DNA from: Escherichia coli
GTDB lineage: Bacteria > Pseudomonadota > Gammaproteobacteria > Enterobacterales > Enterobacteriaceae
Strand: one strand, 5' to 3'
Assembly (NCBI RefSeq): GCF_041248615.1
Contig: NZ_CP158426.1
Length of the DNA stretch: 64,000 bases
Under the pieces are notes generated by a model, which worked only from the letters and a program-made list of their open reading frames with translations, was not told the origin of the DNA and did not search any database. A program made the translations under genes and the position numbers. This document shows, one piece after another, positions 1,443 through 51,012 of this stretch. Numbering within the stretch: position 1 is the stretch's first letter; each line of letters begins with the position of its first letter.

Positions 1443-1443
1443 A

Positions 1444-2727: not shown

Positions 2728-3262
2728 AGAATTTGATTTGGAATTTCTTAAATCTAGATTTTCTGATGCAGATTTCTATTTTTTTGTTTCTAATGATGAC
2801 TCATCTTATATTTCATGCGTAGCATGCTATTGTGAGAGCGCTAATTACGTGGTTGCGAATTGGACAGCGATTCAGAATTATTTATCTGCTTACTACCAAC
2901 CGAAGGATGAATTAGCTCTTTGGAATATATATTTAGTTTTCTTTTGTTCCGAAAAATTACCGATTTGGGATAAGTACCTTATAGATAATGATAAGTATTC
3001 TGTCAGAAAATTAATTATTGACGGGTTAACTACTCTGCCAAGTATTTCCGAAACTGTAACTTTTCTGAACAATCATCTGCTAGGCGCAGACCTAGAATTA
3101 ACTGAAATAGAGGAGAAGAAGGAGATAGAGTTATCATTAATTGAGTATATAAGTGGAACTCCTTTAGATTCAAAGGTTGAGTCGAGAGATGAGCGTATGA
3201 GCAGAATTGATAAAATTATTAATCTAGTGAGTTCAAATAAAAATGAAAATAAAAAAAGTTGA
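2711..3262 (+). CDS. Hypothetical protein, 183 aa, middle gene of candidate operon
   Basis: ORF overlaps upstream gene by 17 nt and downstream gene by 20 nt (translational coupling); no recognisable motif. Confidence 0.5.
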   Translation: MNLLNKEFDLEFLKSRFSDADFYFFVSNDDSSYISCVACYCESANYVVANWTAIQNYLSAYYQPKDELALWNIYLVFFCSEKLPIWDKYLIDNDKYSVRKLIIDGLTTLPSISETVTFLNNHLLGADLELTEIEEKKEIELSLIEYISGTPLDSKVESRDERMSRIDKIINLVSSNKNENKKS

Positions 3263-6200
3263 AATAGAAGGCTTTCGAGCATACAGATTCAAGGAAGATG
3301 GTACTTTCGATTTTACAAATAAAGATGATACGCCATCCAATTTTGTAGCGATCTATGCACCCAATGGCTTTGGAAAAAGTTCATTCTATGATGCGGTTGA
3401 ATGGGCTATTACTCATAATTTAGATAGATTTGCGGGTGAATATAATAAAAAAAATTATGAGCAAGCTGCCAGGAGCACGAAAGAGGACGGTGTTGCACAA
3501 AAAATACTACGTAATAAAGATGTACCAGACAATATTCCTACTCGTGTAACAGTTTTCACTACTTTACCAACTCCATTCGAACAAAGTTTAGGAACAGTTC
3601 GTTCTGATTCTAGAGATATAAGAATCGGCGAGAATAAAAATAAAATCAATGGCTATTTTAGAAAAGTGGTTCTTAGTCAAGATGAAATAGACCGTTTTTT
3701 AAAAGAAGCAAAGCCGCAAGATCGTTATAAGATGTTTATGGAGAGTTTTGGAGGTGAATGGGAAAAGGCGAGACAAGAGCTAACTATACTATTGAATGAC
3801 AATAAGGCGGTTTTGTTAAATCTCGAAAAAAACAAAAATGAACTTCAGGAACAACTAGATCAGCCTGTTGATGCGTCAACATTCATACAATTTAATAAAA
3901 TAGCATCTGAACTTGTAGCAGAAGGTGAAAGTTTACCATTAGTAGATGAAACAACTATAGTTAATACACAGCATGAGCTTTTGGAAAAAATAATCACAAG
4001 AAGTCACGAAATAAATTTTTCCTTAAACAAGAAAAAAATATTGAGAGATTCGATTTCTGAGTATATTTTAAAATTTCCTGATATCAGTTTTCGTACAACC
4101 CAGATTATCGAGAAAAAGAATAGACTAGAAAAAATAAATAAAGGGATAGAAGATGTCGGTCGTTATAAGACATTTCAGTCTACTCTTGAAAAACTGACTA
4201 TCGAAAAGAAAAAGATAAGTCAGAGCTTAAATTTTATAGAAGAATTAGATGGTTTATCCCAAGAGTTTTTAAGCTTGGAATTTAACTTGGAATCAGCTCG
4301 AAAGAAACATAGAGAGATTTCATATAATTATGAAAATGAAAAAACTCTCCTTGATAATTTATTCCAAACAAGAAACCAAAATGATGCTGATTTATCTTCA
4401 ATTGACAAGCGATGCTTATCTATACGTTCTACGTTAGAAAACGCTACGGTTACTTATTCTAATATATCTAATATACAAAATAAAATTTTAAATATAGTTT
4501 CTACGCAAACAGAATTAGAGCACAAACTTAATCAAGTTAGATCCGAATACCAAAAAAACAAATCCGAATTAAACAAAGTATCAGATTTAACAATAACCGC
4601 CAAATCATTACTTTCATCAGACTTAAGTCTAATTGATTTATCTTCAGATTTATTAAAAGAACTAAACAACTTATCGCAAGAACTAAATATATTGGTCCTA
4701 CATGATCAATCAATTCATAACACACAAGAATCTCTTTCTGCACAAATGGGAGTTCACGAACGTCTAATTGCATCGGGCCTTGAGTACTTAAGTTTATGGC
4801 CGACTAATATATGTCCTTTATGTCACAAGCCGCATGACTCTGAGTCCTCTCTTAGAGAACAAGTAACAAATACTGACGTAATATCCATGCTTAGTAAAGA
4901 GAATGCAGCTAAGCTCGAGATATCCTCAAAACGGCGGTCAGAGTTAAATGGCAAGATAGAATCCATCGTACAGAAAGCCCTTGAAATTAAAATGAGTAAA
5001 CTTGAGGTATTAAGTAAAAAGGTCAATCAACAAGGAAATGAGATACATCGAGAAGAACAGCACTATACAGCTCTTTTAGCAGAAAAACAGTCTGTCCAAA
5101 ATCAGTTAAACGAGTTGCAGAAGGCTGTAGCTGGACTAACTAAAGATGAATTATTAGCTCGCTTAGATGCTGAACTTAAAGAATTAGAGGCCAAGAAAAA
5201 TGAAGTGATAAAAAACAAGCTGACCTTGACGAAAAATATTAACGTTAAAAGAACGTTGATTACAGAGTTAAGTGGGGCGATCAATTTACTTAATACGCAA
5301 ATTCATGAAATGATGTCATCATCTAACTATTTAAAAACAAAAGCTTACTCTGAAGAAAATGGCTTGTCATCGGAGTTTTTGAAAGAACATTATGATGATA
5401 AACGCCATTTTTACCTTAAAAATATAAATGGACTCAATTTTGAGATTAATAATATTACCAGCCAATTAAATGATCTTCAGAAAGCTATGATAGCCGATGA
5501 AATGTGGCTGGATTATGAAGAAATGATTTCTGAAAAAGAGAATTTCGAGGATTATATTTCTAAATCAGAAGCGGTTTTACAATCTTATTCATCATTATTA
5601 AAGCAGCATTTTGAACTACCAAAATATGAATCTTTAGTTGAATTGAAAGATTTCCTGATAAGCTCACTTGATAAAGAAACTAGGCTTTATAATGGTCTAG
5701 AGGAACGGCTTGGAAAATATAATTTATTATCAGAACTTTTGAAAACAGCAGAGTCGTTTGTAAAAAGTATTAAGTTGCAGAATGATATTAATGAAACCTT
5801 AGGTCTTATAGAAATAAGAAAAGAAGTTGATTTAGCTCTGACTAAGGAACGAAATCAAGTAATAGAGGAACTTAGAAACTTGATAAAATCTTTCTTTTAT
5901 GAGGAACTCATTAATTCTATTTATAAGAGAATAGATCCACATCCATCACTTAAGAAAGTGGTGTTTCGCCCAGATTTTGACTCATCAGATAAACCTGGTC
6001 TTAATATAGTTGTCAGTGATGAAAAAGGTGATATGGTATCTCCAATATTATTCTTTAGTGCAGCGCAATTAAATATTCTAAGCCTTAGTGTCTTTTTAGC
6101 AAGTGCTTTGCATGCAAAAGATGATAATGGAAATGTAATTGATGTGATTATGATTGATGATCCAATTCAATCAATGGATTCAATTAATATCCTATCCACA

Positions 6201-6380
6201 ATTGATCTTCTTAGAAGTATTACCGTTAGATTCAACAAACAAATAATAATATCAACACATGACGACAATTTCTTTGGCTTGCTCCAACGTAAAATCCCTT
6301 CGGAAATATTGGGTGCCAAGTTTCTTAAATTGGAGAAATTTGGGGTTGTAGTGCCTGTTGATGATTTAAATAATACATGA
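3243..6380 (+). CDS. SMC/Rad50/RecF-like ABC ATPase with long coiled coil and central CxxC motif
   Basis: N-terminal Walker A YAPNGFGKSSFYDAVEWAI; long K/E/L/Q-rich coiled-coil middle; CPLCHKP near centre; C-terminal signature-like FSAAQLNILSLS, Walker B VIMIDDP, His-switch ISTHD. Confidence 0.8.
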   Translation: MKIKKVEIEGFRAYRFKEDGTFDFTNKDDTPSNFVAIYAPNGFGKSSFYDAVEWAITHNLDRFAGEYNKKNYEQAARSTKEDGVAQKILRNKDVPDNIPTRVTVFTTLPTPFEQSLGTVRSDSRDIRIGENKNKINGYFRKVVLSQDEIDRFLKEAKPQDRYKMFMESFGGEWEKARQELTILLNDNKAVLLNLEKNKNELQEQLDQPVDASTFIQFNKIASELVAEGESLPLVDETTIVNTQHELLEKIITRSHEINFSLNKKKILRDSISEYILKFPDISFRTTQIIEKKNRLEKINKGIEDVGRYKTFQSTLEKLTIEKKKISQSLNFIEELDGLSQEFLSLEFNLESARKKHREISYNYENEKTLLDNLFQTRNQNDADLSSIDKRCLSIRSTLENATVTYSNISNIQNKILNIVSTQTELEHKLNQVRSEYQKNKSELNKVSDLTITAKSLLSSDLSLIDLSSDLLKELNNLSQELNILVLHDQSIHNTQESLSAQMGVHERLIASGLEYLSLWPTNICPLCHKPHDSESSLREQVTNTDVISMLSKENAAKLEISSKRRSELNGKIESIVQKALEIKMSKLEVLSKKVNQQGNEIHREEQHYTALLAEKQSVQNQLNELQKAVAGLTKDELLARLDAELKELEAKKNEVIKNKLTLTKNINVKRTLITELSGAINLLNTQIHEMMSSSNYLKTKAYSEENGLSSEFLKEHYDDKRHFYLKNINGLNFEINNITSQLNDLQKAMIADEMWLDYEEMISEKENFEDYISKSEAVLQSYSSLLKQHFELPKYESLVELKDFLISSLDKETRLYNGLEERLGKYNLLSELLKTAESFVKSIKLQNDINETLGLIEIRKEVDLALTKERNQVIEELRNLIKSFFYEELINSIYKRIDPHPSLKKVVFRPDFDSSDKPGLNIVVSDEKGDMVSPILFFSAAQLNILSLSVFLASALHAKDDNGNVIDVIMIDDPIQSMDSINILSTIDLLRSITVRFNKQIIISTHDDNFFGLLQRKIPSEILGAKFLKLEKFGVVVPVDDLNNT

Positions 6381-7696: not shown

Positions 7697-8416
7697 TCAG
7701 AAGTAGGTTGTCCAGAAAGAGGAAACTGGCATCGCCAGTACCAATGCAGGAAGCATACTGGCTACCGGGAAGACCTTGATACCGGAAATACGCAGGCCGG
7801 TCGCCACCATTAGAACGCCACCCACAGCTGAAAAGTCGGCCTGCATGGCAGGCGTGGTCAGGGGCAATATATATATCGCGCTGTAGGCGAGTGCTAACTG
7901 AATGATAAGCTGGGGGAAAGCGACTAATGCCACGGCGTAACCCAGGGTTGTGGCAAAAATGAGGGCGGTCAGCAAATCCAGGAACGCTTTCGCGATAAGG
8001 ATACTCGAGTCCCCGGTCATGCCTTCGTGCATCGCACCAAAAATACCGGTGCCACTGGCACAAAAAAGGACGATGATCGCCACATAGTTTTGTAAAAACT
8101 GCGCCTGTGAGTCTTTGTCTCCGGGATCGCTTTTCACGACGAGCTCCACCAACCCACGGGCTTGTCCGCCCAGGTGGCTTATCCCTTTTTCCAGATAGCA
8201 GAGCTCGCCCACCAGTGTGCCGAGAAGGACCGATAGAACCATGACGGGCATATGGCTGACACTTGTCACAAGGACGATCCCCATACACAGGGAGGCAGCA
8301 CCAAAAATGAGCGGCATTGAGGTACGTAACCTTTCAGGTAGACGTGAGCTAATGATGGCTCCTGCCATCCCGCCGATCACGACGGCAGAGCCGTTGAACC
8401 ATGGGCCTGTAATCAT
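7697..8416 (-). CDS. DUF554 family inner-membrane protein (YqgA-like)
   Basis: Hydrophobic 239-aa ORF; recalled similarity to E. coli YqgA including NYVAIIVLFCASGTGIFG and ILPLTTP; overlaps UbiX-like stop by 4 nt. Confidence 0.7.
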   Translation of the reverse strand: MITGPWFNGSAVVIGGMAGAIISSRLPERLRTSMPLIFGAASLCMGIVLVTSVSHMPVMVLSVLLGTLVGELCYLEKGISHLGGQARGLVELVVKSDPGDKDSQAQFLQNYVAIIVLFCASGTGIFGAMHEGMTGDSSILIAKAFLDLLTALIFATTLGYAVALVAFPQLIIQLALAYSAIYILPLTTPAMQADFSAVGGVLMVATGLRISGIKVFPVASMLPALVLAMPVSSFWTTYF

Positions 8417-9027
8417 AGCGATTTACTCCTGTTATTCAGGTTGGGAGTTTCACCCCAGCGCGGCAATGTGTCGCAATCAAGGTCGAGTAAACTCAGCGCC
8501 CGCGCAACACTATGAGCGAAGATGTTCTCAGTACTTGCAGGGCGTGCATACCAGGCAGGTACGGGTGGAAAAATGATGCCGCCGGTTTCGGTAACCTGAA
8601 GCATGTTACGAAGGTGCCCGGTATGCAGCGGCGTTTCCCGTACCATCAGAACCAGCCTCCGGCGCTCTTTCAGGGTCACATCGGCTGCCCGCACCAGCAA
8701 ACTGTTGGTTAAGCCCGCCGCAACAGCGGCGAGGGTGTTCATAGAGCAGGGGACAATCAACATCCCGGATGCCCTGAACGAACCGCTGGCGATGTCGGCT
8801 GCAATATCATCAAAGGGATAAATTACATCAGCCAGCTTATGAACGTCGTCTTCTGACAAAGTGGTTTCCAGACTGCGGGTCAGATGAGCGGCAGGAGAAA
8901 TCACAACGTGACTTTCCACGTTAAGTTGTCGCAGATAACGCAGGGCCTGCACTCCATATAAAAAACCGGATGCACCACTGATCCCAATGATGACGCGCTT
9001 GCGAGGAGAACATTCAGATGTCGACAT
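8413..9027 (-). CDS. UbiX/Pad1-family flavin prenyltransferase
   Basis: N-terminal VIIGISGASGFLYG motif typical of UbiX; 204 aa; directly downstream of UbiD-like gene. Confidence 0.85.
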   Translation of the reverse strand: MSTSECSPRKRVIIGISGASGFLYGVQALRYLRQLNVESHVVISPAAHLTRSLETTLSEDDVHKLADVIYPFDDIAADIASGSFRASGMLIVPCSMNTLAAVAAGLTNSLLVRAADVTLKERRRLVLMVRETPLHTGHLRNMLQVTETGGIIFPPVPAWYARPASTENIFAHSVARALSLLDLDCDTLPRWGETPNLNNRSKSL

Positions 9028-9037
9028 TATGGCGTCC

Positions 9038-10522
9038 TCAGTACTTGAAGTTATCCGGGAGGAAACGACTGATCTCGACCTCCATGAATTCGCTGCGGCG
9101 AAACTGGCCTTTCATCGTGAACGGAACGGTACAGTCGAAAATAGTTTTACAGGCGATCCCGTGGTCGCGGACGGAGTAACTAAAAGCCGGGTCAGAGGAC
9201 GGATCGAGGGGATGGCACCTTACGCCGGGTATGAACACCGTGCTGATATCCCCCTGATAGCGTGTCGTCATTGCCCATATCACGTCATTGAGATCGAAAA
9301 TATCCACATCGTCATCAACCAGAATCACATGCTTGAGTTCCGAGAATGCGGAGAAGGCCAGAAGAGCCGCCTGGCGCTGACGACCTTCATCGTTTGGCAG
9401 ACGTTTTTTCACCTGCAATACGGCAAGATATTTTCCGGTCCCGGGTGACGGGCAGTGAACATTTTGCACAAAGCCGGGAAGGGCGCGCTCCACCAGTTGC
9501 AGAATACTGGCCTCGGTGGGGATCCCTGCCATATTGGTATGCTCGTCACTTGGACCAATGCAGGTCTGTAGAATTGGGTGACGGCGGTGGGTGATGGCTT
9601 TCACTTTTATCACTGGCACCATTTGCTGTGCCTGTCCGGTATAGCCGGGGAATTCCGGCATGGCTTTACCACTGTTGGTATTTTGATCCTCCCTGACCCG
9701 ATAGTTAGGAATGAGTTCCCCCTCGATAACGACTTCGGCGTTCGCAATGGCCCGGGCATTCACGGTCAGACACTGGCACAGCTCAACAGGCTGTTTACGC
9801 AAGCTCCCTGCCACTGACAGTTCGTCAAAACCAAGTGGAGTTGTGGGCGGTTCGAAGCAGGCACCGATTTCAATGGCTGGGTCAACACCAATGCTGATCG
9901 AGATGGGAAGTGGGGCCCCATCTTCCTCTGCTTTCTGACGGAACAAATCCAGATGCCGACCGGGAACGAAGTACATGGATATTTCATCCCTGTTTTGCAC
10001 GCACAGTCGGTGAATAGTGATGTCATGCTCGCCGGTATGTGGATCGGCGGCGTAGCACATACCGAGAGTGAAGTAAGGACCGGCATCCTCCGGCGTATTC
10101 GTGGGTGCTGGCAGGATATTGAGGATACTGAAATCCGGATCGGATGCCAGATGGACTACTTCCTGACAGACGGCATTTTCCTGCGGAATAACGACAGGAC
10201 TTATCGGGGTGCTTACCGCGTCTTTCAGTAAAAAGGCCAGCTTATCGGGTGTGGTATCCAGTAGCCGGGCCACGCGTTTTCGCGAGGCGAGAAGACCTAT
10301 CAGCACTCGCATATCGGTATAGCCTTTAATCCGGTTAAAGAGCATGGCTGGACCGATACGAGTCGGACGCATGACCGTACCGTGTGCCCCAATGTAGCGG
10401 TACACCCCTGACAGTTCTGCACTTGGATCAACGGGTTCATCGGTTTCGATAAGCTCATCATCAAACTTGCGCAGTACGGCCAGCGCACTGCGTAGGTCAG
10501 TCACTTTTTGTGTTTGAGACAT
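9038..10522 (-). CDS. UbiD-family (prFMN-dependent) decarboxylase
   Basis: 494-aa ORF with UbiD-like size and sequence character; paired with UbiX-like gene as in non-oxidative aromatic acid decarboxylase operons. Confidence 0.8.
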   Translation of the reverse strand: MSQTQKVTDLRSALAVLRKFDDELIETDEPVDPSAELSGVYRYIGAHGTVMRPTRIGPAMLFNRIKGYTDMRVLIGLLASRKRVARLLDTTPDKLAFLLKDAVSTPISPVVIPQENAVCQEVVHLASDPDFSILNILPAPTNTPEDAGPYFTLGMCYAADPHTGEHDITIHRLCVQNRDEISMYFVPGRHLDLFRQKAEEDGAPLPISISIGVDPAIEIGACFEPPTTPLGFDELSVAGSLRKQPVELCQCLTVNARAIANAEVVIEGELIPNYRVREDQNTNSGKAMPEFPGYTGQAQQMVPVIKVKAITHRRHPILQTCIGPSDEHTNMAGIPTEASILQLVERALPGFVQNVHCPSPGTGKYLAVLQVKKRLPNDEGRQRQAALLAFSAFSELKHVILVDDDVDIFDLNDVIWAMTTRYQGDISTVFIPGVRCHPLDPSSDPAFSYSVRDHGIACKTIFDCTVPFTMKGQFRRSEFMEVEISRFLPDNFKY

Positions 10523-10651
10523 TACGTTTTCCTCAGTAAGTCGCCGGGAGACAGCATGCCCGGTGTGCTTTTATCTTCATCCTGCAGGCAATCACAGGAC
10601 GAGCCGTTACATCACTGACAGTATGTGAGGCAACATAAATCCCCGTCTAAT

Positions 10652-10675
10652 CACATTAACGACGTTTTTAATGTG
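10652..10675. promoter_or_regulatory. Interrupted palindrome CACATTAA-N8-TTAATGTG, candidate LysR-type regulator binding site
   Basis: Located in divergent intergenic region between the UbiD-like operon and the LysR gene; dyad of the kind used by LTTRs. Confidence 0.4.
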
Positions 10676-10710
10676 GGATTGTTATCGAAAAATAGTGATT
10701 GGAGGAACGT

Positions 10711-11592
10711 GTGGACTATCGGTATTTGCATGCATTTGTGGTGCTTGCCAGAGAACTGCATTTTGGAAAAGCCGCACTGCGGCTCAACATCACGCAGCCA
10801 GCCTTAAGCCGTCAGATTAGAGTGCTGGAAGATCAGCTTGGCATGGTGCTATTTACGCGTGATCGTCGTCATGTGGCGCTGACTGTGGAAGGAACTCAGC
10901 TTGCAGCGGAGGCGCGGAGCGCCGTCAGTCATTACGAAAAAATGCTGAGCCGTGCGAGTAGCCTTCGAAAAGGCTATAAAGGACAACTCATACTGGGTTA
11001 TGTCGGATCTTCCATTCTTGATCCCGCCCTGACACGGTTAATCACCTGTTTTCGCGAGACTAAACCGGATGTTGAGATTGTTATTGAGGAGCACAACGTT
11101 GACGAACAGCTCACCCTCCTGCTCGACCATCAACTGGATATGGGGCTGCTCCGATCGCCTGTTCCGCATTTTGCCAACCTGGACTACGTGGATATCGCCA
11201 CCAGGTCACTCATCGCCGCAGTACCGCACACGCATCCGCAGGCAGGAGTCGGTAAAATAGAGCTGGAGACGTTGTCCGGGGATACATTTATGATCCAGAA
11301 AGATCCGCCCGGGGTCGGGCTAGGCTGGTCTGCATTACATGCCTGTGAGATGGCCAGTTTTGTCCCACCCAAAATCTATTTTACTCGCGATGTTGCGGTG
11401 GCTATTGGCATGGTGTCGATGGGAATAGGAGTTACGCTGGTGCCAGAAACCCAGCGTTCTGTAACGTTGCCTAATGTCTGCTACTGCCTGCTGCACGATC
11501 CCGAGGTCACAACGACCTTAACGCTTTGCTGGCCGAAATTCAGGAAAAGCAGGGAATTGATAGAGTTTGTACGCTCTTTAACGCTTGGTTGA
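10711..11592 (+). CDS. LysR-family transcriptional regulator
   Basis: N-terminal HTH LHFGKAALRLNITQPALSRQIRVLEDQLG; GTG at 10711 with GGAGG 5 nt upstream (ORF track starts at TTG 10699); divergent from decarboxylase operon. Confidence 0.85.
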   Translation: MDYRYLHAFVVLARELHFGKAALRLNITQPALSRQIRVLEDQLGMVLFTRDRRHVALTVEGTQLAAEARSAVSHYEKMLSRASSLRKGYKGQLILGYVGSSILDPALTRLITCFRETKPDVEIVIEEHNVDEQLTLLLDHQLDMGLLRSPVPHFANLDYVDIATRSLIAAVPHTHPQAGVGKIELETLSGDTFMIQKDPPGVGLGWSALHACEMASFVPPKIYFTRDVAVAIGMVSMGIGVTLVPETQRSVTLPNVCYCLLHDPEVTTTLTLCWPKFRKSRELIEFVRSLTLG

Positions 11593-12412: not shown

Positions 12413-13357
12413 ATGACTATGTCCCTGCATACCAAGATAAGTGCCCCTAACACGACAGCGGCGACCAGCGTATCCTCGCTGGATCTGTCAGGCTCCTCAA
12501 AAACGAAATGTTCAACAGCCAGAACCGATATTTATCAGACTGTTACCGACAGCATAATTGCGGCGCTGGAAACCGGAGTAAAACCTTGGGTGTGTCCTTG
12601 GCAGCGAGCTCCCGGTATGTCCGGTTTACCGTCCAATTACGCCACTGGTAAGGCTTACAGCGGAATGAATATCATGTTGCTTTGGTGCAGCGCGTCAAAA
12701 CAGGGATTCTGTGATTCACGCTGGATGACCTACAAACAGGCAAAAGCGGTAGGTGGGCAGGTGCGCAAGGGAGAACACGGCACTACCGCGATTTTCTATA
12801 CCACGCTGGAAAAGGAAAATGATAACGGAGAAACTGACTATATTCCTATGCTGAAAGCATTCACTGTGTTTAATGTTGAACAAATTGACGGTTTACTCCT
12901 GAGTGATGATGCCGTTTTTCCGGCAGAGATCTTTGAGCCATTACCACGTGCAGAAGCACTTTTTCGTAGTAGCGGTGCAACCATTATTGAAAAAGGACAG
13001 AATGCTTTTTTTACACCATCAACCGACGAAATTCGCTTACCTGAACGGTATCTTTTTATTGATGCTGCTAATTTCTACGCAACCGGCCTGCATGAGCTCG
13101 TTCACTGGAGTGGGGCAAAAAGTCGGCTGAACCGTGAAATGAAAGGGAAATTTGGCAGCGAGGGGTATGCGTTTGAAGAGTTGATCGCTGAGCTGGGGAG
13201 CGCATTCCTGATGGCGGATCTGGGGATAGTTGGAGAAGTTCTGCATGACAGTTATATCGCTTCCTGGCTTAAAGCACTGAGGAATGATAAACGCTATATT
13301 TTCAAGGCCGCCAGCGCGGCATCGAAAGCACATCGCTATTTGATGGATAAAAGCTGA
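12413..13357 (+). CDS. ardC: ArdC-like antirestriction protein (ssDNA-binding N-domain plus zincin-like metallopeptidase C-domain)
   Basis: DIYQTVTDSIIAALETGVKPW N-terminal ArdC-type motif; HExxH motif GLHELVHWSG in C-terminal half; hairpin after stop. Confidence 0.75.
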   Translation: MTMSLHTKISAPNTTAATSVSSLDLSGSSKTKCSTARTDIYQTVTDSIIAALETGVKPWVCPWQRAPGMSGLPSNYATGKAYSGMNIMLLWCSASKQGFCDSRWMTYKQAKAVGGQVRKGEHGTTAIFYTTLEKENDNGETDYIPMLKAFTVFNVEQIDGLLLSDDAVFPAEIFEPLPRAEALFRSSGATIIEKGQNAFFTPSTDEIRLPERYLFIDAANFYATGLHELVHWSGAKSRLNREMKGKFGSEGYAFEELIAELGSAFLMADLGIVGEVLHDSYIASWLKALRNDKRYIFKAASAASKAHRYLMDKS

Positions 13358-13651
13358 GTAGCAAAAAGCCGCAAAGGAATGCGGCTTAATGGGCTGGGGG
13401 TACTAAACCAGTAAAGGTTTAGTCAGTAATATTAGTGAAGCAGAGCAAGTATCGAACAGTCATATTCCTGTAGTGGTATTAAGACAACCTTAAGAAGGGA
13501 CTGATGTATAGCTACTCTTGTATACCCATCCATGGAAAATTCGGTTGTATTGCCGGGTTGATATGTGCAGGTTGGTCCCGACCCAAGAAGTTTTTACTGT
13601 GAAAATTGTCAAACTATATCAATGTGGTAACAGCTTCTCTTGTCCCTTTGG

Positions 13652-14002
13652 TTATTTCAAATTGGACCGGGCTATCTGTTGCAACACGGTTGCTCTGCTT
13701 GAAACAGAGTTAACATATGCAACATCAGATACTTTGAGTTTGATCAGATCATAGCCTCGTAGCTTACTGTCCAAGGTCATATTGAACAGAGTTAAATCGC
13801 GCATTTTACCTTCCATTTCAAGCCTGATTCGGATCCCCCCTGATATGAGATATCTGAAGTGGTCTTTTTGGTCAGTGATACTTACAATACGGTCTTTGTC
13901 CCACGGTGACGTGTTCATACTCAAAGCTCCTGTAATGTTGGAGATTTGAGCATGGTTATCCCTCATGAGCGAGGAACGGACAATGTCCCTTGCGCGATCC
14001 AA
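13652..14002 (-). CDS. Hypothetical protein, possible recombinase-like remnant
   Basis: 116-aa ORF; weak resemblance (LRGYDLIKLKVSDV) to tyrosine recombinase core motif; no clear start context. Confidence 0.25.
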   Translation of the reverse strand: MDRARDIVRSSLMRDNHAQISNITGALSMNTSPWDKDRIVSITDQKDHFRYLISGGIRIRLEMEGKMRDLTLFNMTLDSKLRGYDLIKLKVSDVAYVNSVSSRATVLQQIARSNLK

Positions 14003-14200
14003 GATTGATTTTTCTTATTAAATTAAGCTATGGCTGACCTACGAACGATAGGCAAAATGCTCCTAAAGCTACGGCTTATGACAGTAAAAAACATATTGAT
14101 AAAAATCTGAGCTGGTTTAGAATGCTATAATGGAATAATTATTTATTTTCGGCCTTCAGTTTGATCATTTTTAGAAATCACCCTTTTGAAGGAATCTACA

Positions 14201-14995
14201 ATGGAATCAGAAGAAACGAAAGAAGAGAGTTATCAACAGCGTTCGGAGTTTATCAGAAAAATAATTCAACAGCCTGTTGAGGGTGTCATATCTTCATGCA
14301 CTATACCAAAAAAAATAATTCAATTTTGGGATTCATCCAATACTATCCCTAATGATGTCAGACATTGCATGAAATCATGGCGTATCTTAGAACCTTTTGG
14401 GTATGAGTATTTACTATATGATTTCGTTAGCGCCCAAGAATTTATTAAACATAATTTGGGTGAAACATACAGTGAAGCTTTTGCCAAGTGTACTCATCCT
14501 GCTATGCAATCAGATTATTTCCGATTATGTTATATCTCGGTAAACGGGGGATTTTATGTTGACACTGATGATGTTTATCTGGGTAGTGAGATAAGTAGTT
14601 TTTTCACGGATGATAAGTTAAAAATACAACCTTTATGCTACGATATTTCCACCGATTCTATGATTCCACCAGAAATTTTTACAAAGGAAAATACTTATGA
14701 AGAATCTTGGATTTTTTATTTCAACAACAACCCGTTAATTGCTCCGCCTCATCATGTTATCATTGATAAGGCACTAGAGCAATCCACATACTTACTTAAT
14801 AAATCAAGCTATCCTCTCACAGATATTCAGTCAACAACTGGTCCTGGTAATCTATCTAAATCTATTTTCTCGTGTCGCGAGGAAATAGATTTATTATCCC
14901 AGATTACGGTAGTATCAAACTGGCAAGATATTGCAGAAACTAAGTGGGATTTAGAATACAGAGCTGATTCTAGAAATTGGCGCTTGATGAATTAA
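14201..14995 (+). CDS. Glycosyltransferase with DXD motif (Gly_transf_sug-like)
   Basis: IIQFWDSSN...CMKSW and GGFYVDTDDVY motifs; ATG 14201 with GAAGGA upstream (track start is TTG 14186); AT-rich. Confidence 0.65.
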   Translation: MESEETKEESYQQRSEFIRKIIQQPVEGVISSCTIPKKIIQFWDSSNTIPNDVRHCMKSWRILEPFGYEYLLYDFVSAQEFIKHNLGETYSEAFAKCTHPAMQSDYFRLCYISVNGGFYVDTDDVYLGSEISSFFTDDKLKIQPLCYDISTDSMIPPEIFTKENTYEESWIFYFNNNPLIAPPHHVIIDKALEQSTYLLNKSSYPLTDIQSTTGPGNLSKSIFSCREEIDLLSQITVVSNWQDIAETKWDLEYRADSRNWRLMN

Positions 14996-15010
14996 CATGG
15001 ATTTTTAATA

Positions 15011-17212
15011 ATGAACATTAAAAATAATTTGAAAGGTATTAGCCGTTTTTTTTATTCTTTTTACTTACGCTCTCGGTTACTTCTCCCAGCGCAAAAATCA
15101 TCGACCTTTAATACATTAAATCAGAATGAAGGCGTTATTAGCAGGATTTACGCTATAAACTTAGAACGGGAAGCGATTAGATGGGCAGATTTAAATAAAG
15201 AACTGGGTAAAATACTAGATAAATCTAATAAAAAATTAACGAGCCAATTAACCAGATTCTCTGCTATAAACGCCAAAGAAATGTCAGACATTCTCAATGA
15301 GGAAGAGGTTATTCCTTATTATACTTTAGCAGACCAGTTGTACGTTGACCCTCAACCAAAAATCTTACCCGATAAATTTGATCTCGATGTCCCTATAAAA
15401 ATGAGTAAAGCGGAAATTGCTGTAGCATTATCGCATCTAAATGTTATTAGGCTTGTTGCAGAAGGTTCTGATGCATATGCTTTAGTGCTTGAGGATGACG
15501 TGTATTTTGAAAGAGATTTTGCCAAAACCTTAGATGCTGCTTGGTCTGAAATGATTCAAGCTGACAGATCTTCACCTGGTTTTGATATCTTATATTTGTC
15601 ATTTAAAGAGGTTATGAATGGCGCGAAAAAGAAAATTATTTCGAAAAGCATATTTAAACCAGAGCGAGGGTTATGGTATTTTTCAGGATATGTATTATCT
15701 AAGAAAGGAGCAAATAAAATCCTCTCACTCCTCCCAACTTATGGACCAATTGACTTATGGATAAATCATCAATTTGAGAAACTCGATGTGAGGGCAGTAT
15801 ATAAGTCGATCATTTCTCAGAGGTTGGATTTTAACTCTTCAAATTCCTATTCAATATTACCTACCTTAGTGAAGATTGGTATTATTGACAATGAAAAAGC
15901 TTCCAGTTTTAATGAACTTCCAAATTATTGGCCTGTTTTTGCATTTGGTGTAAGTGGTTCGGGTATTTCTTCTTTGGGTATGGCACTATCAATGCTTGGC
16001 TATAAGTGTTGTAGTGATATTGATAGACTTCCCAATGCAGACTTAAAAAATCTATTAAGTAATTCAGAGCAGAATGAATTCAATGCTTATGTAAATGTTG
16101 GCTGTCTCAGTAAGTATATCGGCATATTAAAAAAACAATATCCAAAAGCAAAATTTATAATTACCACGAGTGAATCAAAAGAAATCGAAGATGTTATTTT
16201 TAATATAATTGAGGAGATCGTTGATACTGACTATGTTGTATTGCATTCAGATGAAAAAAACAAATGGAAGGTTATATGTGAATACCTTCAATGCCCACCA
16301 CCTATTTCAGCGTACCCAGAAATGGCTGACATTATTCCTAGGCAGATTATAGATATCACCAGTGCAGCACAAATCAATAATTCAGAAATTAACATGATAC
16401 ATGACATTTCCCCTTGGATATTAGAAAGAAAGAATTTTTCAGGAAATGGTTTTTTTATAAAAGATAATCCGAAGAGAATTGAAAAAGAGCTTGCTGATTT
16501 CTTCATTAATGATTCACTACAAAATATTAATAATAACTATTGGGAAATTCGCGATGATACTTTCCCTGGAAATCTTGGACTGTTTCGACCTCAAAATGTG
16601 ATTCAAAATGATATTAGTGGTTTAGGTCTTGTAGTTAAGGAGGAACAGTTAGGCGTTAGAGAGTTTAGTGCTGCTGCGATTTCAAGTAGAATGAAGTTCC
16701 TATATGGCCGATTTGAAGTGTCCCTACGAGCGGCAAATGTTGCAGGGATAGTAACCGGCTTCTTTTTACATAGAGATTCGCCTCGTCAAGAAATCGATAT
16801 TGAGTTTGTTGGAAATCGATCTGATCATATGTTGATCAATGTTTTTTATAATCCTGGTGATGAAGGTGCAAAGTTTGATTATGGATATCGTGGTACACCA
16901 ACTCTTATTCCTTTAGGTTTTGATGCTTCTGAAGAGTTTCATGATTACATGATTGAATGGAGTCCTGATGAGATAAAATGGTTTGTGGATGGAGTTATGG
17001 TTTATCGTAGAGGAGTTTGGGGGCCTACACCTATACCTCATTTACCCATGACCCTTCATGCTAACACTTGGCCAACCCGTTCCAAGGAACTGGCGGGACG
17101 TCTCCACACGCGTTCCTTACCCTGTATCACTTATATTAGGAAAATATGTATTGATGCAACAATGGATGTTAATAATCCAAAATTAAATGACCAGACAGTA
17201 GTGGCTGGTTAA
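15011..17212 (+). CDS. Multidomain protein: GT25-like glycosyltransferase N-domain, central region, GH16-like C-terminal domain
   Basis: N-terminal RIYAINLEREAIRW and LVLEDDVYFE resemble family 25 glycosyltransferases; C-terminal EIDIEF matches the GH16 ExDxxE catalytic motif; 733 aa; AT-rich. Confidence 0.65.
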   Translation: MNIKNNLKGISRFFYSFYLRSRLLLPAQKSSTFNTLNQNEGVISRIYAINLEREAIRWADLNKELGKILDKSNKKLTSQLTRFSAINAKEMSDILNEEEVIPYYTLADQLYVDPQPKILPDKFDLDVPIKMSKAEIAVALSHLNVIRLVAEGSDAYALVLEDDVYFERDFAKTLDAAWSEMIQADRSSPGFDILYLSFKEVMNGAKKKIISKSIFKPERGLWYFSGYVLSKKGANKILSLLPTYGPIDLWINHQFEKLDVRAVYKSIISQRLDFNSSNSYSILPTLVKIGIIDNEKASSFNELPNYWPVFAFGVSGSGISSLGMALSMLGYKCCSDIDRLPNADLKNLLSNSEQNEFNAYVNVGCLSKYIGILKKQYPKAKFIITTSESKEIEDVIFNIIEEIVDTDYVVLHSDEKNKWKVICEYLQCPPPISAYPEMADIIPRQIIDITSAAQINNSEINMIHDISPWILERKNFSGNGFFIKDNPKRIEKELADFFINDSLQNINNNYWEIRDDTFPGNLGLFRPQNVIQNDISGLGLVVKEEQLGVREFSAAAISSRMKFLYGRFEVSLRAANVAGIVTGFFLHRDSPRQEIDIEFVGNRSDHMLINVFYNPGDEGAKFDYGYRGTPTLIPLGFDASEEFHDYMIEWSPDEIKWFVDGVMVYRRGVWGPTPIPHLPMTLHANTWPTRSKELAGRLHTRSLPCITYIRKICIDATMDVNNPKLNDQTVVAG

Positions 17213-17490
17213 TCATTAGAGTGAAAAGTAAATATTAGTAAGGCACTGGTAAAAATGTAGACACTATCAGTGCCTTAGTAGTTATCCCTCTGGATGGTTT
17301 TTTGACAATAATTTCCGTTTCTGGCACGGAACGGACAGAAAGCAGGGCCACCAAATCTCTCACGAGCCAAAAACCTAAATTATGATCTGACAGATACATG
17401 TATCAATGAAACTGTCGCTGTCAGATCAATTACGCCTTACTATCTGAAAATTATTTGATTTTCTGCATCGTGCATTCAAATTAACAATGT

Positions 17491-18342
17491 TCAGGAGGCA
17501 TAAACTGAAAGGAGTTCTTTAGCTGCCAATTGACCAAGTGCGTTGGCTGCAAAAGGACTGTCACCTGTCAGTACCTTACGATCTTTGTATACGCTTCCTT
17601 TAATATCATCATTAACAATATTCATCCCCATTTGCTTAAGTGCATCGCCAAAATACCATGTGAGATGGCCCGGCATATAACCAATGTCAGGCGTCTGCTT
17701 ATCAGCTGAATCAGGGAAAGCGCAAATAGAATACTCTTTTAGAGGGTTTTCACCATTGCGCAGCGAAAGGAATGCTGCTGGGCCATGGCAAAGGGATATG
17801 ACGAAGCGGTCATTGTCCATGAACCAGCGAAGAGTATCGGCTACTGCGCTGCTTTCTGGCAGCCCAATCAGTGCGCCGTGGCCACCAGGAATAAACACGG
17901 CAGCATATTCACTTTGCTTGTTCAGGCTATTCAATACATCAGACAATTTTTCAGGATTTTGGAACTTGTCTCTATACCGGCTGAAAAATGGCATAACTTT
18001 CTCATCCTTGTGCGGCATGGCCCAGTATTCGAACTTTGTCATGTAACCTGAGATTGTCGCAATGTCAAAATCAAAACCAGCAGCATGCAGGTGATACATT
18101 GGAATAAGCGTTTCAACAGGATGGTTTCCCGTTGAGAACAGAGCCCCGCTATCAGTCATCAGGTAACGCTCATCCGCAGCGATGACCAGCACCTTCTTCC
18201 CTCCCATGCACTGTTTGGGATAGTCGTAGTCACTAAGGTCAGATACGGGGCTGGTAAACTGACTAAGGGAATAGTCAGAGGGGAAAAATGCGTTTTCTTC
18301 AGCATGATCCACTTTCGGATGTTTACTTTTATCATTTGTCAT
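17491..18342 (-). CDS. hchA: Hsp31 / glyoxalase III (DJ-1/PfpI family), divergent HchA homologue
   Basis: 283-aa product from MTNDKSKHPKVDHAEENAFFPSDYSLSQ; strong but not identical similarity to recalled E. coli HchA (KFEYWAMPHKDEKVMPFF, FVISLCHGPAAFL, TGDSPFAANALG); track ORF 17491..18504 extends upstream into the IS2 flank. Confidence 0.85.
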   Translation of the reverse strand: MTNDKSKHPKVDHAEENAFFPSDYSLSQFTSPVSDLSDYDYPKQCMGGKKVLVIAADERYLMTDSGALFSTGNHPVETLIPMYHLHAAGFDFDIATISGYMTKFEYWAMPHKDEKVMPFFSRYRDKFQNPEKLSDVLNSLNKQSEYAAVFIPGGHGALIGLPESSAVADTLRWFMDNDRFVISLCHGPAAFLSLRNGENPLKEYSICAFPDSADKQTPDIGYMPGHLTWYFGDALKQMGMNIVNDDIKGSVYKDRKVLTGDSPFAANALGQLAAKELLSVYAS

Positions 18343-18514
18343 TACGTATTCCTCGTTGATTGGTGTTAACTCTCTTTCTCGGGCCTGAATTCGCCTGTTA
18401 TATGGGCGACCAGGATAGCCTGATAGACTGGCCCCATGAATCTCCAGACAACCAATATCACTTAAATAAGTGATAGTCTTAATACTAGTTTTTAGACTAG
18501 TCATTGGAGAGCAG

Positions 18515-21106: not shown

Positions 21107-23032
21107 CTAAAAGTTCAGTAACGAGGGATGATCCTCTTTACCTGCACCTGCACCTGCACCTGCACCTGCACTTGTTGTTGTGTGTTTCTCGTCCGGCTTG
21201 TCAAAAAAGAGATCGGGTTGTGTTGTCGTGATAACTGATGTTGATGACGGTCCGGATGACATTTCTTCCTCGTCAAAATTCAGGGCAATGTTGACTCTTG
21301 CGGCGGTGGCGGCAACAGCGGGCGATACGGCACAGATCGCCAGTTCCCTTTTTTTAACCCTGATGGGAGAAATTAGTGAAGCAGAGGGGAGGGCTTTGGT
21401 GGTGAATATAAAACTGACAAAATCAGGCAGGTTCAGCACCATATTACTGTCGATAAAGAAACGCTCGGCCTGCCTGATGGTGCGTTCACTATCGATAGTC
21501 TCTGTCAGCACCGCATCTGTTTTGGCTTTGCGGACTTCGTCATCGACTAATATGGTGCCTGACATTCTTGCCACCCAGTCAGCGGTATCAGGGTCCATGA
21601 CACGATAAACCAGCTTGAATTTGGCATTCTCCACAACTGCACCCACCACGGCATCGCTTTTCAAATCCGCCGGGCAATCTTTTAAATCGGCAATGGATTG
21701 GTGGTCCATAATAATGTGTACACCTTTATCCCGTGCCGCACCTAAGCCTTCCAGCGCAGGCTTGGATAAATGGTATTTCAGTTCGGAAAGGTAAATAGCA
21801 ATAGGGCGGGGTGTGTGGTTTACCCGATCGCGCCTTTCTGCCAGCTGGTACAGGCGAACCAGCAGCATGCGCTGAGCGGTAATAATTTTGCTGTTGCGCA
21901 TCGAGCCAATCACATAGCAGCAACCACCGTTATCAAATATTGTATTGAGGGAAAATCCTGCCGGTGCATTGATGGCATTGAGTAAGGCCAGCTCCTCAAT
22001 TTTCCCGAAAAAGGCTTTTATCTTATCAGCGATACTTTGGACGTATTCCCCGTTATACACATCCCGAATGGTTGAGGTCGTATTACGGGCGACAAATTGT
22101 GCAGCTATTCGGGCTGCTTTGCGATCGTCAATGCGATAAAAGTCAGACTCTTGTCCTTTCTCTGCCAGACTGAAACCCGCGACAAAAAGTTCTTCCAGTT
22201 CATCAGCGGTGATATCGTTAATCAGGTTTAGCTGGTATGCCTGTTTCCTCAGGTCAATTAGGGCAAAGGATTTCCCTGCATCCTCGCAGGCTTTCCGGTA
22301 AAGGTGTGGGGCCCACTCATCATCTTTGGGGTCCATAACAAATACGCCTTCACCGGCCAAAATACTCTGATAAAGTAATATCCCGGTGGCCACCCCTTTA
22401 CCGGCCCCCGTGGTCCCGATGATATCGGCATGTTGTTTTTGCCAGTCTTTTAACGGCAGGTACATCGGCTGTTTCATTCTGTTCATGCCGATAAAAATAC
22501 CTTTACTCAGGTTAATATAATCCTCCGGGTTATAGTGCAATGTTTCCGGTAGCAGCGATTTCACCGTTCGGACATCAGTACGTAATTCCCTTTCCAGAGT
22601 GGTTTTTCTGACGAACCGACTTTTTACTTTATCGAGTTCAGGTGTTAACACCCTGCGCAGAAGAATATGGAAAACAAAACCGGCTGCGGTAGAGGTAATC
22701 AGTATCAGCCAGGAGAGGACAGTATTGCTGGTGGCTATCTTTATTCGGTATATCCATTGAAATAATTCGTTCACCACGGGCGCTATTGTGCCAAACAAAA
22801 AGCACAGTATGGAAAAAACTATCACCAGCTTTTTCCATAAAGGGGCTTTGAGTCGTTCATCGCTTTTCATCGACGCGAAGAATGGCATGGTCAGCCCTGA
22901 GAATAGCGCCAAAATAGGTTGATGCTGGTGCATAAAAACGAGCAGTCCCAGCATGCCGTCCACTATCGGTGATAGTGAAACGATCAGCTTATTTAACACC
23001 ATAATGCTTCCTTTATCGGCCATTCGCCCCAC
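21107..23032 (-). CDS. Type IV coupling protein (VirD4/TraD/MobB-like)
   Basis: N-terminal TM helices; Walker A GTTGAGKGVATG; 641 aa; C-terminal Gly-Ala repeat. Confidence 0.85.
   Translation of the reverse strand: MGRMADKGSIMVLNKLIVSLSPIVDGMLGLLVFMHQHQPILALFSGLTMPFFASMKSDERLKAPLWKKLVIVFSILCFLFGTIAPVVNELFQWIYRIKIATSNTVLSWLILITSTAAGFVFHILLRRVLTPELDKVKSRFVRKTTLERELRTDVRTVKSLLPETLHYNPEDYINLSKGIFIGMNRMKQPMYLPLKDWQKQHADIIGTTGAGKGVATGILLYQSILAGEGVFVMDPKDDEWAPHLYRKACEDAGKSFALIDLRKQAYQLNLINDITADELEELFVAGFSLAEKGQESDFYRIDDRKAARIAAQFVARNTTSTIRDVYNGEYVQSIADKIKAFFGKIEELALLNAINAPAGFSLNTIFDNGGCCYVIGSMRNSKIITAQRMLLVRLYQLAERRDRVNHTPRPIAIYLSELKYHLSKPALEGLGAARDKGVHIIMDHQSIADLKDCPADLKSDAVVGAVVENAKFKLVYRVMDPDTADWVARMSGTILVDDEVRKAKTDAVLTETIDSERTIRQAERFFIDSNMVLNLPDFVSFIFTTKALPSASLISPIRVKKRELAICAVSPAVAATAARVNIALNFDEEEMSSGPSSTSVITTTQPDLFFDKPDEKHTTTSAGAGAGAGAGKEDHPSLLNF
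21137..21166. repeat. Hexanucleotide tandem repeat (CACCTG)x5 within coupling protein C-terminus
   Basis: Read directly; encodes (Ala-Gly)n on the minus strand; in-frame repeat. Confidence 0.85.
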
Positions 23033-49855: not shown

Positions 49856-49931
49856 TGGCTCCTCTGACTGGACTCGAACCAGTGACATACGGATTAACAG
49901 TCCGCCGTTCTACCGACTGAACTACAGAGGA
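49856..49931 (-). tRNA. asnT: tRNA-Asn (anticodon GUU)
   Basis: Reverse complement reads TCCTCTGTAGTTCAGTCGGTAGAACGGCGGACTGTTAATCCGTATGTCACTGGTTCGAGTCCAGTCAGAGGAGCCA; matches recalled E. coli tRNA-Asn; next to mtfA as at the E. coli asnT locus. Confidence 0.95.
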
Positions 49932-50922: not shown

Positions 50923-51012
50923 GGAGAGATGCCGGAGCGGCTGAACGGACCGGTCTCGAAAACCGGAGTGGGGGCAACTCCACCGGGGGTTCAAATCCCC
51001 CTCTCTCCGCCA
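50923..51012 (+). tRNA. serU: tRNA-Ser (anticodon CGA)
   Basis: 90-nt GGAGAGATGCCGGAGCGGCTGAACGGACCGGTCTCGAAAACCGG...CCCCCTCTCTCCGCCA with long variable arm. Confidence 0.9.

Follow-up and report, generated by a model that had tools for sequence, protein, structure and literature searches.

What does a pair of sugar-active enzymes do as mobile cargo in a handful of Escherichia coli strains? We addressed this question in a 64,000-nucleotide stretch of E. coli DNA (RefSeq assembly GCF_041248615.1, contig NZ_CP158426.1; hereafter the window), using the RefSeq annotation of the E. coli NRZ14408 chromosome, which is 100% identical to the window. Two co-directional open reading frames (ORFs) lie on the plus strand at 14186/14201–14995 and 15011–17212. 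The first encodes a family 32 glycosyltransferase (GT32) and the second a protein that joins a family 25 glycosyltransferase (GT25) domain, a sulfotransferase-like domain and a family 16 glycoside hydrolase (GH16) domain. The module to which they belong is a genuine mobile unit of two to three genes. We give an even chance to the reading that the pair is the core of a widespread, mobile and self-contained cytoplasmic glycosylation module, most likely serving in conflict with phages or mobile elements. By their conservation, the DxD of GT32, the EDD of GT25 and the ExDxE of GH16 are three intact catalytic centers, each without variation across the family.

An earlier note on this DNA had described a glycosyltransferase gene with a DXD motif followed 16 nt later by a large ORF, and the ORF list and the RefSeq annotation both contain this arrangement. 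The alignments of homologues (264–290 amino acids) begin at the ATG at 14201, the start codon chosen in RefSeq, and ORF 1 accordingly encodes 264 amino acids; ORF 2 encodes 733 amino acids and begins 16 nt past the last base of the ORF 1 stop codon. The marked AT-richness of both genes was also borne out, the GC content being 0.34 across 14–17 kb of the window and 0.45–0.53 on either side (34% against flanks of about 50%). A 2.2-kb ORF at 34% GC that has more than 1700 homologues in databases is far beyond chance.

The 733-amino-acid protein was modeled with AlphaFold2 (AF2) from a 42-sequence alignment, and the model contains three confident domains (pLDDT 88.8, pTM 0.86). Domain prediction and structure modeling both upheld the folds that had been read at the two ends of the protein. 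The N-terminal domain (about residues 43–295; 15137–15895, plus strand) matches Pfam Glyco_transf_25 (PF01755) over residues 45–242 (2.1e-14), as do 42 of 42 family members, and is modeled as a confident alternating beta/alpha domain. Residues S141, H142, E161, D162 and D163 are invariant in the 42 sequences, whose identity ranges down to 33%, and the nearest solved relative by sequence is procollagen galactosyltransferase 1 (4e-6). The PF01755 match, together with a GT-A fold carrying a conserved acidic DxD-type motif, places the domain in CAZy family GT25. From its family it would be an inverting GT-A enzyme that transfers galactose or glucose from a uridine diphosphate (UDP)-sugar. It shares PF01755, the GT-A fold and the acidic E-D-D with LgtB/LgtE, Lic2A, LpsA and COLGALT1, but differs from them in being fused to two further domains and in lying outside lipopolysaccharide (LPS) loci.

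The C-terminal domain (about residues 461–720; 16391–17170, plus strand) matches Glyco_hydro_16 (PF00722) over residues 544–694 (6.4e-31). The EIDIEF sequence, at residues 594–599, matches the catalytic motif of Bacillus lichenases position by position in the alignment, and E594, I595, D596 and E598 are invariant in the same 42 sequences. A Foldseek search with the model matched this part to the lichenases 1mac, 3i4i and 1gbg at TM-scores of 0.84–0.88, followed by the chitin-glucan transglycosylase Crh5, EG16 and XTH enzymes. The domain has the features of CAZy family GH16, namely the PF00722 match, a beta-jelly-roll fold and the catalytic E-x-D-x-(x)-E motif, to which is added an extra N-terminal extension of approximately 80 residues with invariant D465, P468 and W469. 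We take it to be of the bulge-less ExDxE clade (lichenase/XTH/Crh), which holds many transglycosylases, and it thus shares its clade with the XTH and Crh transglycosylases.

The database names of the protein in RefSeq and UniRef, 'family 16 glycosylhydrolase' and 'Beta-glucanase', and its best sequence and fold matches, the Bacillus lichenases, would suggest an ordinary degradative beta-glucanase that digests environmental beta-glucans. We consider this very improbable. No signal peptide or transmembrane (TM) segment was found in either window protein, and their maximum 19-residue Kyte-Doolittle scores are 1.37 and 0.68; lacking any hydrophobic segment, both proteins are predicted to be cytoplasmic. 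The GH16 domain shares its polypeptide with an invariant GT25 domain, and a GT32 gene lies directly upstream on the same strand in 69 of the 71 loci that have room for one (tblastn). No sugar-uptake genes or polysaccharide utilization loci are co-conserved. The NCBIfam equivalog model for BglS scored the protein at 106 bits, far under its cut-off of 300, and we rejected it as a lichenase (BglS) orthologue. The BglS lichenases of Bacillus and Paenibacillus have the same beta-jelly-roll and an aligned E-I-D-I-E-F, but they are secreted, whereas the window domain is predicted to be cytoplasmic and is transferase-fused, and identity between them is only 24–30%. The nearest GH16 relatives outside the family are proteins of 800–930 amino acids in which a GT2 synthase and several TM helices precede the GH16 domain; no description of such a membrane GT2–GH16 synthase fusion was found. 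In five of them (P0201, P0204, P0219, P0224 and P0238) the partner of this GH16 subtype is a multi-TM GT2 synthase whose RRRRW/QxxRW-type motif is of the processive kind. This GH16 lineage has been attached repeatedly to glycosyltransferases, which points to product processing rather than nutrient degradation.

The central domain (about residues 296–460; 15896–16390, plus strand) contains the Gly-rich segment that the earlier note had called P-loop-like. The segment is there, but it is not a Walker motif; it corresponds to the decayed 3'-phosphoadenosine 5'-phosphosulfate (PAPS) loop of a Sulfotransfer_4-like domain. Pfam gave only a weak Sulfotransfer_4 match over it (residues 309–353, E 0.93). 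The fold search with the whole model was swamped by GH16 matches, and the middle domain was therefore tested instead as a sequence profile. This profile matches the schistosome sulfotransferases 5tiz (1.8e-10) and 4mua (2.6e-9), and the domain is a detectable homologue of the Sulfotransfer_4 enzymes, which include the oxamniquine-activating SmSULT-OR of schistosomes and SgdX2 (profile E values of 1.8e-10 to 2.3e-7); PF17784 itself is matched by 5 of 42 family members at E<=1e-3 (best 1e-13). Compared with the solved enzymes, the middle domain lacks the P-R-T-G-T loop and a segment of approximately 65 residues; neither the 5'-phosphosulfate-binding loop (P-[KR]-[ST]-G-[ST]-[ST]) nor the 3'-phosphate-binding segment of a sulfotransferase is seen. 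The loop site of the E. coli protein reads G-V-S-G-S-G-I-S-S from G313, and its basic position varies across the family. No polar residue of the domain is conserved across the family, the only positions conserved at 95% or above being L329, G330, Y331, F357, A359, W419, L426, P431 and P436. Both an active sulfotransferase and a Walker P-loop nucleoside triphosphatase (NTPase) in the center were ruled out by this conservation pattern and the alignment to PDB entries. The middle domain of the E. coli protein and of most of the family is probably a non-enzyme, a decayed sulfotransferase fold that most likely serves as a scaffold. A few distant members (one of which starts QISKKLIARKPVFAIGLNKTGTTSL) retain a canonical K-T-G-T-T loop and a longer insert. 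This retention suggests that the ancestral protein also sulfated its product, an activity that may have been lost in most lineages.

A potential concern with a protein of this kind is whether the 733-amino-acid ORF arose from separate genes joined by an assembly error or a frameshift. We found nothing in favor of this, regard it as scarcely conceivable, and the comparative data refute it. Both the GT25 and the GH16 domain are present in 42 of 42 family members, the AF2 model is confident in all domains, and the same uninterrupted architecture occurs in hundreds of independent genomes and metagenomes. There are 183 homologue clusters at E<=1e-30, with full-length homologues of 700–770 amino acids at 89% identity in Yersinia and Serratia, at 54–59% in Pseudomonas and Burkholderia, and at 33–50% in many phyla. 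Within E. coli, the pair is present in only 4 of 5426 complete genomes, and the tri-domain sequences of these four are 99.9–100% identical. The fusion is genuine, and the earlier note's unfamiliarity with a transferase-plus-glycanase protein was well placed: the literature searched holds no description of this domain architecture, and databases label the proteins by domain only.

A scan of one genome per species yielded 216 relatives of the tri-domain protein. Among the best 80 of these, the hosts are Alpha-, Beta-, Gamma-, Delta- and Epsilonproteobacteria, Bacteroidota, Firmicutes, Actinobacteria, Chloroflexi, Planctomycetes, Nitrospirota, Acidobacteria, Verrucomicrobia and Omnitrophota, as well as one Beckwithbacterium of the candidate phyla radiation (CPR). 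Full-length homologues at 35–59% identity occur in more than 15 phyla, yet the module is present in roughly 0.2% of species; this sparse occurrence, combined with high identity across phyla, indicates frequent horizontal transfer.

The 264-amino-acid protein encoded upstream (14201–14995, plus strand) is named 'glycosyltransferase family 32 protein' in RefSeq and matches Gly_transf_sug/GT32 (PF04488) at 3.3e-8. Its DxD is formed by D121 and D123 within YVDTDD and is invariant in 65 of 65 homologues. The closest fold to its AF2 model (pLDDT 87) is that of the GT32 mannosyltransferase Och1 (1.5e-10); next come the toxin glycosyltransferases YeGT, PaToxG, SetA and Lgt1, which are retaining GT-A enzymes. 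The Pfam match, the DxD and a GT-A fold nearest a GT32 structure assign it to CAZy family GT32, as a putative retaining GT-A enzyme. Note that the TM-scores to Och1 and the toxin enzymes are modest (0.45–0.55); with such fold neighbors, the acceptor may be either a glycan or a protein. The fold and the DxD motif are common to all of these enzymes, but the window protein lacks the delivery domains of the toxins.

We clustered the ORFs of 80 loci to find recurrent neighbors. Three ORF families, and no others, were found repeatedly: those of the tri-domain protein, of GT32 and of a protein of approximately 540 amino acids. The GT32 and tri-domain genes are usually separated by a 4-bp overlap or a gap of less than 40 bp. 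The third gene, present in 33 of 54 loci and immediately downstream in 29 of those 33, encodes a NodU/CmcH-type O-carbamoyltransferase that is positive for Carbam_trans_N/C (Carbam_trans_C, 4e-54); at 245 bits against the 1000-bit equivalog cut-off for NodU, it is a member of that family and not NodU itself. A tblastn search of the window with this family found no copy or remnant, and the Pseudomonas, Burkholderia and Serratia forms also lack the gene. It is an evenly balanced proposition that the full or ancestral form of the module comprises GT32, the GT25–sulfotransferase-like–GH16 protein and the NodU-type O-carbamoyltransferase, the E. coli locus being a two-gene form. The carbamoyltransferases of a Desulfosporosinus (Firmicutes; L033) and of a Bacteroidetes metagenome-assembled genome (L041) are, by eye, unusually similar over their full length for hosts so far apart, which points to a recent transfer of the three-gene form between phyla. 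No exporter, flippase, priming transferase or regulator was co-conserved in the clustered loci.

These data bear on whether the module decorates surface glycans, as the earlier note had inferred. In this scenario the transferases would modify precursors of the LPS core, O-antigen, enterobacterial common antigen or capsule at the cytoplasmic face. GT25 enzymes are best known as beta-galactosyl- and beta-glucosyltransferases of lipooligosaccharide (LOS) and LPS, as the Pfam name reflects; homologues at JGI are labeled 'GR25 family glycosyltransferase involved in LPS biosynthesis'; GT32 and GT25 domains occur together in Acinetobacter outer-core loci according to the literature; and mobile elements commonly carry genes that mask receptors. 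Nevertheless, the module is found at 41–52% identity in bacteria that have no LPS, namely Firmicutes, Actinobacteria, Chloroflexi and CPR members. In none of its contexts is it joined by a flippase, exporter or priming transferase, and none of the approximately 20 contexts examined places it inside a cluster for the synthesis or export of polysaccharides. The surroundings do not resemble an LPS/LOS locus, since the module is cargo of an integrative conjugative element (ICE) or plasmids, occurs in hosts without LPS and has no co-conserved polysaccharide genes. Surface decoration would also leave unexplained a cytoplasmic GH16 domain with an invariant catalytic triad. Phylogenetic spread and missing export functions thus weaken the LPS/capsule proposal, as do the lack of an export signal and the Gram-positive and CPR hosts. 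We consider it unlikely, and equally so its variant in which the module changes the serotype or phage receptors in the manner of lysogenic-conversion enzymes or the phase-variable GT25 enzymes of LOS. The module is predicted instead to be cytoplasmic and independent of any envelope-polysaccharide pathway. The other possibility raised in the earlier note, a target-modifying module, may still apply.

A soluble product is a serious rival, although a rather unlikely one in our estimate, and would be compatible with a role in chemical defense. The transferases would build a small glycan or glycoside (a signal, an osmolyte or an antibiotic-like natural product) as a di- or oligosaccharide on a primer, the GH16 domain would release or transglycosylate it, and the carbamoyltransferase would decorate it. 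This fits a self-contained module with a NodU/CmcH-type tailoring enzyme of the kind familiar from Nod factors and antibiotics, and no acceptor-specific partner is found among the neighboring genes. Fusions of glycosyltransferases and glycoside hydrolases that make free cyclic glucans offer a parallel: NdvB (GH17–GT2) makes cyclic beta-1,3-glucan and Cgs (GT84–GH94) cyclic beta-1,2-glucan. In both, the transferase is coupled to a 'hydrolase' that transglycosylates the nascent product or sets its length. A similar coupling is found in the fungal pair Bgs3–Ghs2, a synthase with its GH16 remodeler (PMC12933572). These systems employ other families than the GT25, GT32 and GH16 of the module, which also lacks a membrane domain; the GT2–GH16 membrane synthases, being its nearest GH16 relatives, fit the same coupling logic. 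Against a soluble product, the loci show no co-conserved genes for export, regulation or precursor supply, and the E. coli, Pseudomonas and Burkholderia forms do without the carbamoyltransferase.

For the cytoplasmic module that we favor, the chemistry of the CAZy families suggests a sequence of reactions. The inverting GT25 domain would add a beta-linked hexose (glucose or galactose) from a UDP-sugar to an acceptor, and the retaining GT32 enzyme would add an alpha-linked sugar. The fused retaining GH16 domain would then cleave or transfer the beta-linked product, and the tri-domain protein would in this way write and cut the same type of bond, resulting in release or relocation of a short glycan or in cycling of UDP-sugars. 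Where present, the carbamoyltransferase would O-carbamoylate the product.

The genomic company of the module supports a role in conflict. Its association with defense islands is the strongest pattern, and one that the earlier note had not seen. The module is found on nine plasmids. Lit and Shedu lie near it on an Aliarcobacter plasmid, DUF262 genes on Citrobacter and Rhizobium plasmids, an Abi protein on a Rhizorhabdus plasmid, and ThiF/multiubiquitin, RES-Xre, VapBC and Fic on a Sphingobium plasmid; in a metagenome-assembled genome its surroundings include a PLD-SNF2 helicase and an Eco57I-type enzyme. To quantify this association we drew a systematic sample, every third locus, from the 33 genome loci whose flanks each reach at least 7 kb, and scanned the largest neighboring ORFs within 6 kb with PADLOC. 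Seven of the 11 sampled loci had strong matches to named defense systems within 6 kb, a count made with no matched control set. These were Bil and RES-Xre, identified by Pfam in Bradyrhizobium (L014); HerA and SIR2 (L025; 1e-155 and 1e-93); HEC-04 (L033; 1e-45); GajA and GajB (L055; 2e-274 and 5e-250); a CBASS cyclase (L065; 3e-74); DpdF with a DUF262-type HEC-06 (L069; 6e-141 and 3e-39); and a dGTPase with a PtuA-like ATPase (L073; 3e-81 and 5e-141). In the remaining full-flank loci, where one or two ORFs were tested each, we found Old (3e-240), Tiamat TmtA (9e-278), HmaB (3e-298), two type I methyltransferases, bSEFIR (2e-87), MkoA (3e-43) and, by homology to the L055 proteins, two more Gabija pairs. 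A named defense component thus occurs within 6 kb in at least 16 of the 33 full-flank loci, and roughly 40% of the large neighboring ORFs tested are defense proteins, again with no matched control set for either figure. We presume a share of about 40% to be far above that expected for the neighbors of ordinary genes. The location of about half of the loci in defense islands, ICEs and plasmids makes a conflict role most likely, rather than housekeeping synthesis of the envelope.

Some partners recur. DUF262/GmrSD-like genes stand beside the module in three unrelated loci (L051 in Citrobacter, L094 in Rhizobium, and L069 at 13049–14884), Gabija does so in three (L049, L055 and L072) and RES-Xre in two (Bradyrhizobium and Sphingobium). 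These recurrent partners might reflect more than co-residence in islands.

A more specific proposal is that the module, with or without the carbamoyltransferase, represents an immune system of a new class, directed against phages or plasmids and relying on a carbohydrate-based effector chemistry. We advance this tentatively, as possible but short of an even chance. In one version, the write-and-cut cycle would burn the UDP-sugars needed for glucosylation of phage DNA and for the cell envelope, leading to abortive infection. In another, the module would glycosylate or de-glycosylate a phage component, for example modified DNA or a structural protein; the DUF262/GmrSD-like genes that repeatedly stand beside it would fit an interplay with glycosylated phage DNA. 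Gabija, Tiamat and SIR2-HerA resemble the module in being small, self-contained operons that are patchy across phyla, carried by ICEs and plasmids and embedded in islands, but the module differs from them in lacking a nuclease, NTPase, TIR/SIR2 or protease effector. A phage origin, or a role as a phage DNA-modification gene, was rejected: a tblastn search of 50,697 phage genomes with the module gave no match, and PHROGs returned only a generic glucosyltransferase moron family (2e-9).

Several observations weigh against a role in conflict. About half of the loci have no known defense neighbor, and some adjoin the housekeeping genes alaS, radA or proBA; the neighbors in loci with no defense matches are housekeeping genes (alaS, radA, a ClC channel) or recombinases. 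The link to defense is one of guilt by association, drawn with no matched control neighborhoods, and is an association rather than proof; accessory genes of any function gather in the same variable islands and plasmids. No model in PADLOC-DB v2 matches either protein, which eliminates a known defense system, and a defense system based on a glycosyltransferase or glycanase is absent from the literature searched, so that there is no mechanistic precedent. To our knowledge, a chemistry of glycosyl transfer and hydrolysis has no precedent among defense systems. Finally, the donor sugars, the acceptor and the choice between hydrolysis and transglycosylation by the GH16 domain are surmised from family membership.

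As far as we could determine, the families themselves are known, but their combination, the obligate pairing, the cytoplasmic site and the defense-island habitat are undescribed. If the conflict role is correct, glycosyl transfer and hydrolysis would join nucleases, NADases, nucleotide depletion and membrane disruption among the chemistries of bacterial immunity, in a two-gene module that spans Gram-negative, Gram-positive and CPR bacteria and is easy to test. A cytoplasmic GH16 domain with an intact site, fused to GT25 and paired with GT32, is in any case a CAZyme architecture with no assigned product, and resolving it would define a new glycan or glycoconjugate. Such work would also correct the database labels 'beta-glucanase' and 'LPS biosynthesis', which are probably misleading. 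As ICE cargo in E. coli, the pair is not simply another serotype-conversion locus.

The mobility of the pair is apparent from its position in the window, in agreement with the horizontal acquisition proposed in the earlier note, with its rarity in E. coli, and with its place in an ICE at a tRNA-Asn. By blastn, 3381 bp of the window is 84% identical to the Klebsiella michiganensis plasmid pKmfe267-2 (L089, 7948–11318). The homology is confined to 13966–17327 (plus strand; GC 0.34), which defines a discrete 3.4-kb cassette containing both genes, with margins of about 235 bp on the upstream side and about 115 bp on the downstream side. Adjoining it, on the minus strand at 13517–14002, are a decayed gene for a tyrosine recombinase of approximately 200 amino acids and its upstream region, annotated in RefSeq as 'integrase, frameshifted, internal stop, incomplete'. 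By tblastn, the window recombinase is 58% identical to both of the 200-amino-acid recombinases that flank the cassette on pKmfe267-2, where the two recombinase genes, 93% identical to each other, bracket it and a GFA-gene cassette intervenes. The segment next to the recombinase meets the cassette directly in the window, at the shared motif GAGCGAGGAACGGAC (13967–13981).

On the plasmid locus (6687–7351, 7880–7960 and 11346–12011), each recombinase gene of approximately 200 amino acids precedes cargo cassettes (GFA, the glycosyltransferase pair, EcsC). The cassette junctions share TGAGCG-RRG-ARCGGAC, of which GTCCGCT-N9-AGCGGAC is an inverted-repeat form. The arrangement to which the cassette belongs looks integron-like; we do not recognize the small-recombinase cassette system of pKmfe267-2 and the window as any known one. 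Elsewhere in the window the junction motif has three matches at up to 3 mismatches, a number that 7 of 100 shuffled sequences reach and that is not significant. Upstream of the GT32 gene, inside the cassette, is a candidate promoter, TTGATA-16-TAGAAT (14096–14123, plus strand; 10 of 12 consensus positions). It is only a candidate, as scans for promoters and terminators found no more sites in the region than in shuffled sequence. A search for regulatory RNAs around the cassette gave only a sub-threshold Rfam match, to C0719 (20.7 against 50 bits).

The module is cargo of an ICE with a VirB-type type IV secretion system (T4SS), a coupling protein and MobC. One end of the ICE is marked by its integrase (48423–49694) and by the tRNA-Asn at which it is integrated (49856–49931); beyond this end, after mtfA, is a tRNA-Ser (50923–51012). 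Past the tRNA-Ser, the segment 48423–52090 runs on into a lambdoid (Rac/Qin-like) prophage that is degraded and carries dicB, ydfABC, hokD and an integrase gene with a frameshift. The immediate neighbors of the pair are ArdC, the decayed tyrosine recombinase, hchA and an IS3 element. Adjoining the cassette, hchA (glyoxalase III) corresponds to a mechanical ORF of 337 amino acids (17491–18504, minus strand), of which RefSeq annotates 283 (17491–18342); the upstream in-frame extension is probably untranslated.

Other cargo of the ICE was also apparent. RefSeq annotates an ABC-three-component system about 8 kb upstream of the pair. The region 390–6380, with a GC content of 0.31–0.36, encodes a ComEC/Rec2-like protein followed by this three-gene 'ABC-three component system' with its 1045-amino-acid AAA ATPase, and is a probable second conflict system on the same ICE. 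Between it and the pair, at 7697–11592, are a DUF554 gene, a UbiX-family flavin prenyltransferase, a UbiD-family decarboxylase and a divergent LysR regulator, which together look like a portable aromatic-acid decarboxylase module. The ORF for the T4SS coupling protein (21107–23032, minus strand) has a low-complexity tail that contains the short Ala-Gly repeat SAGAGAGAGAGKEDH.

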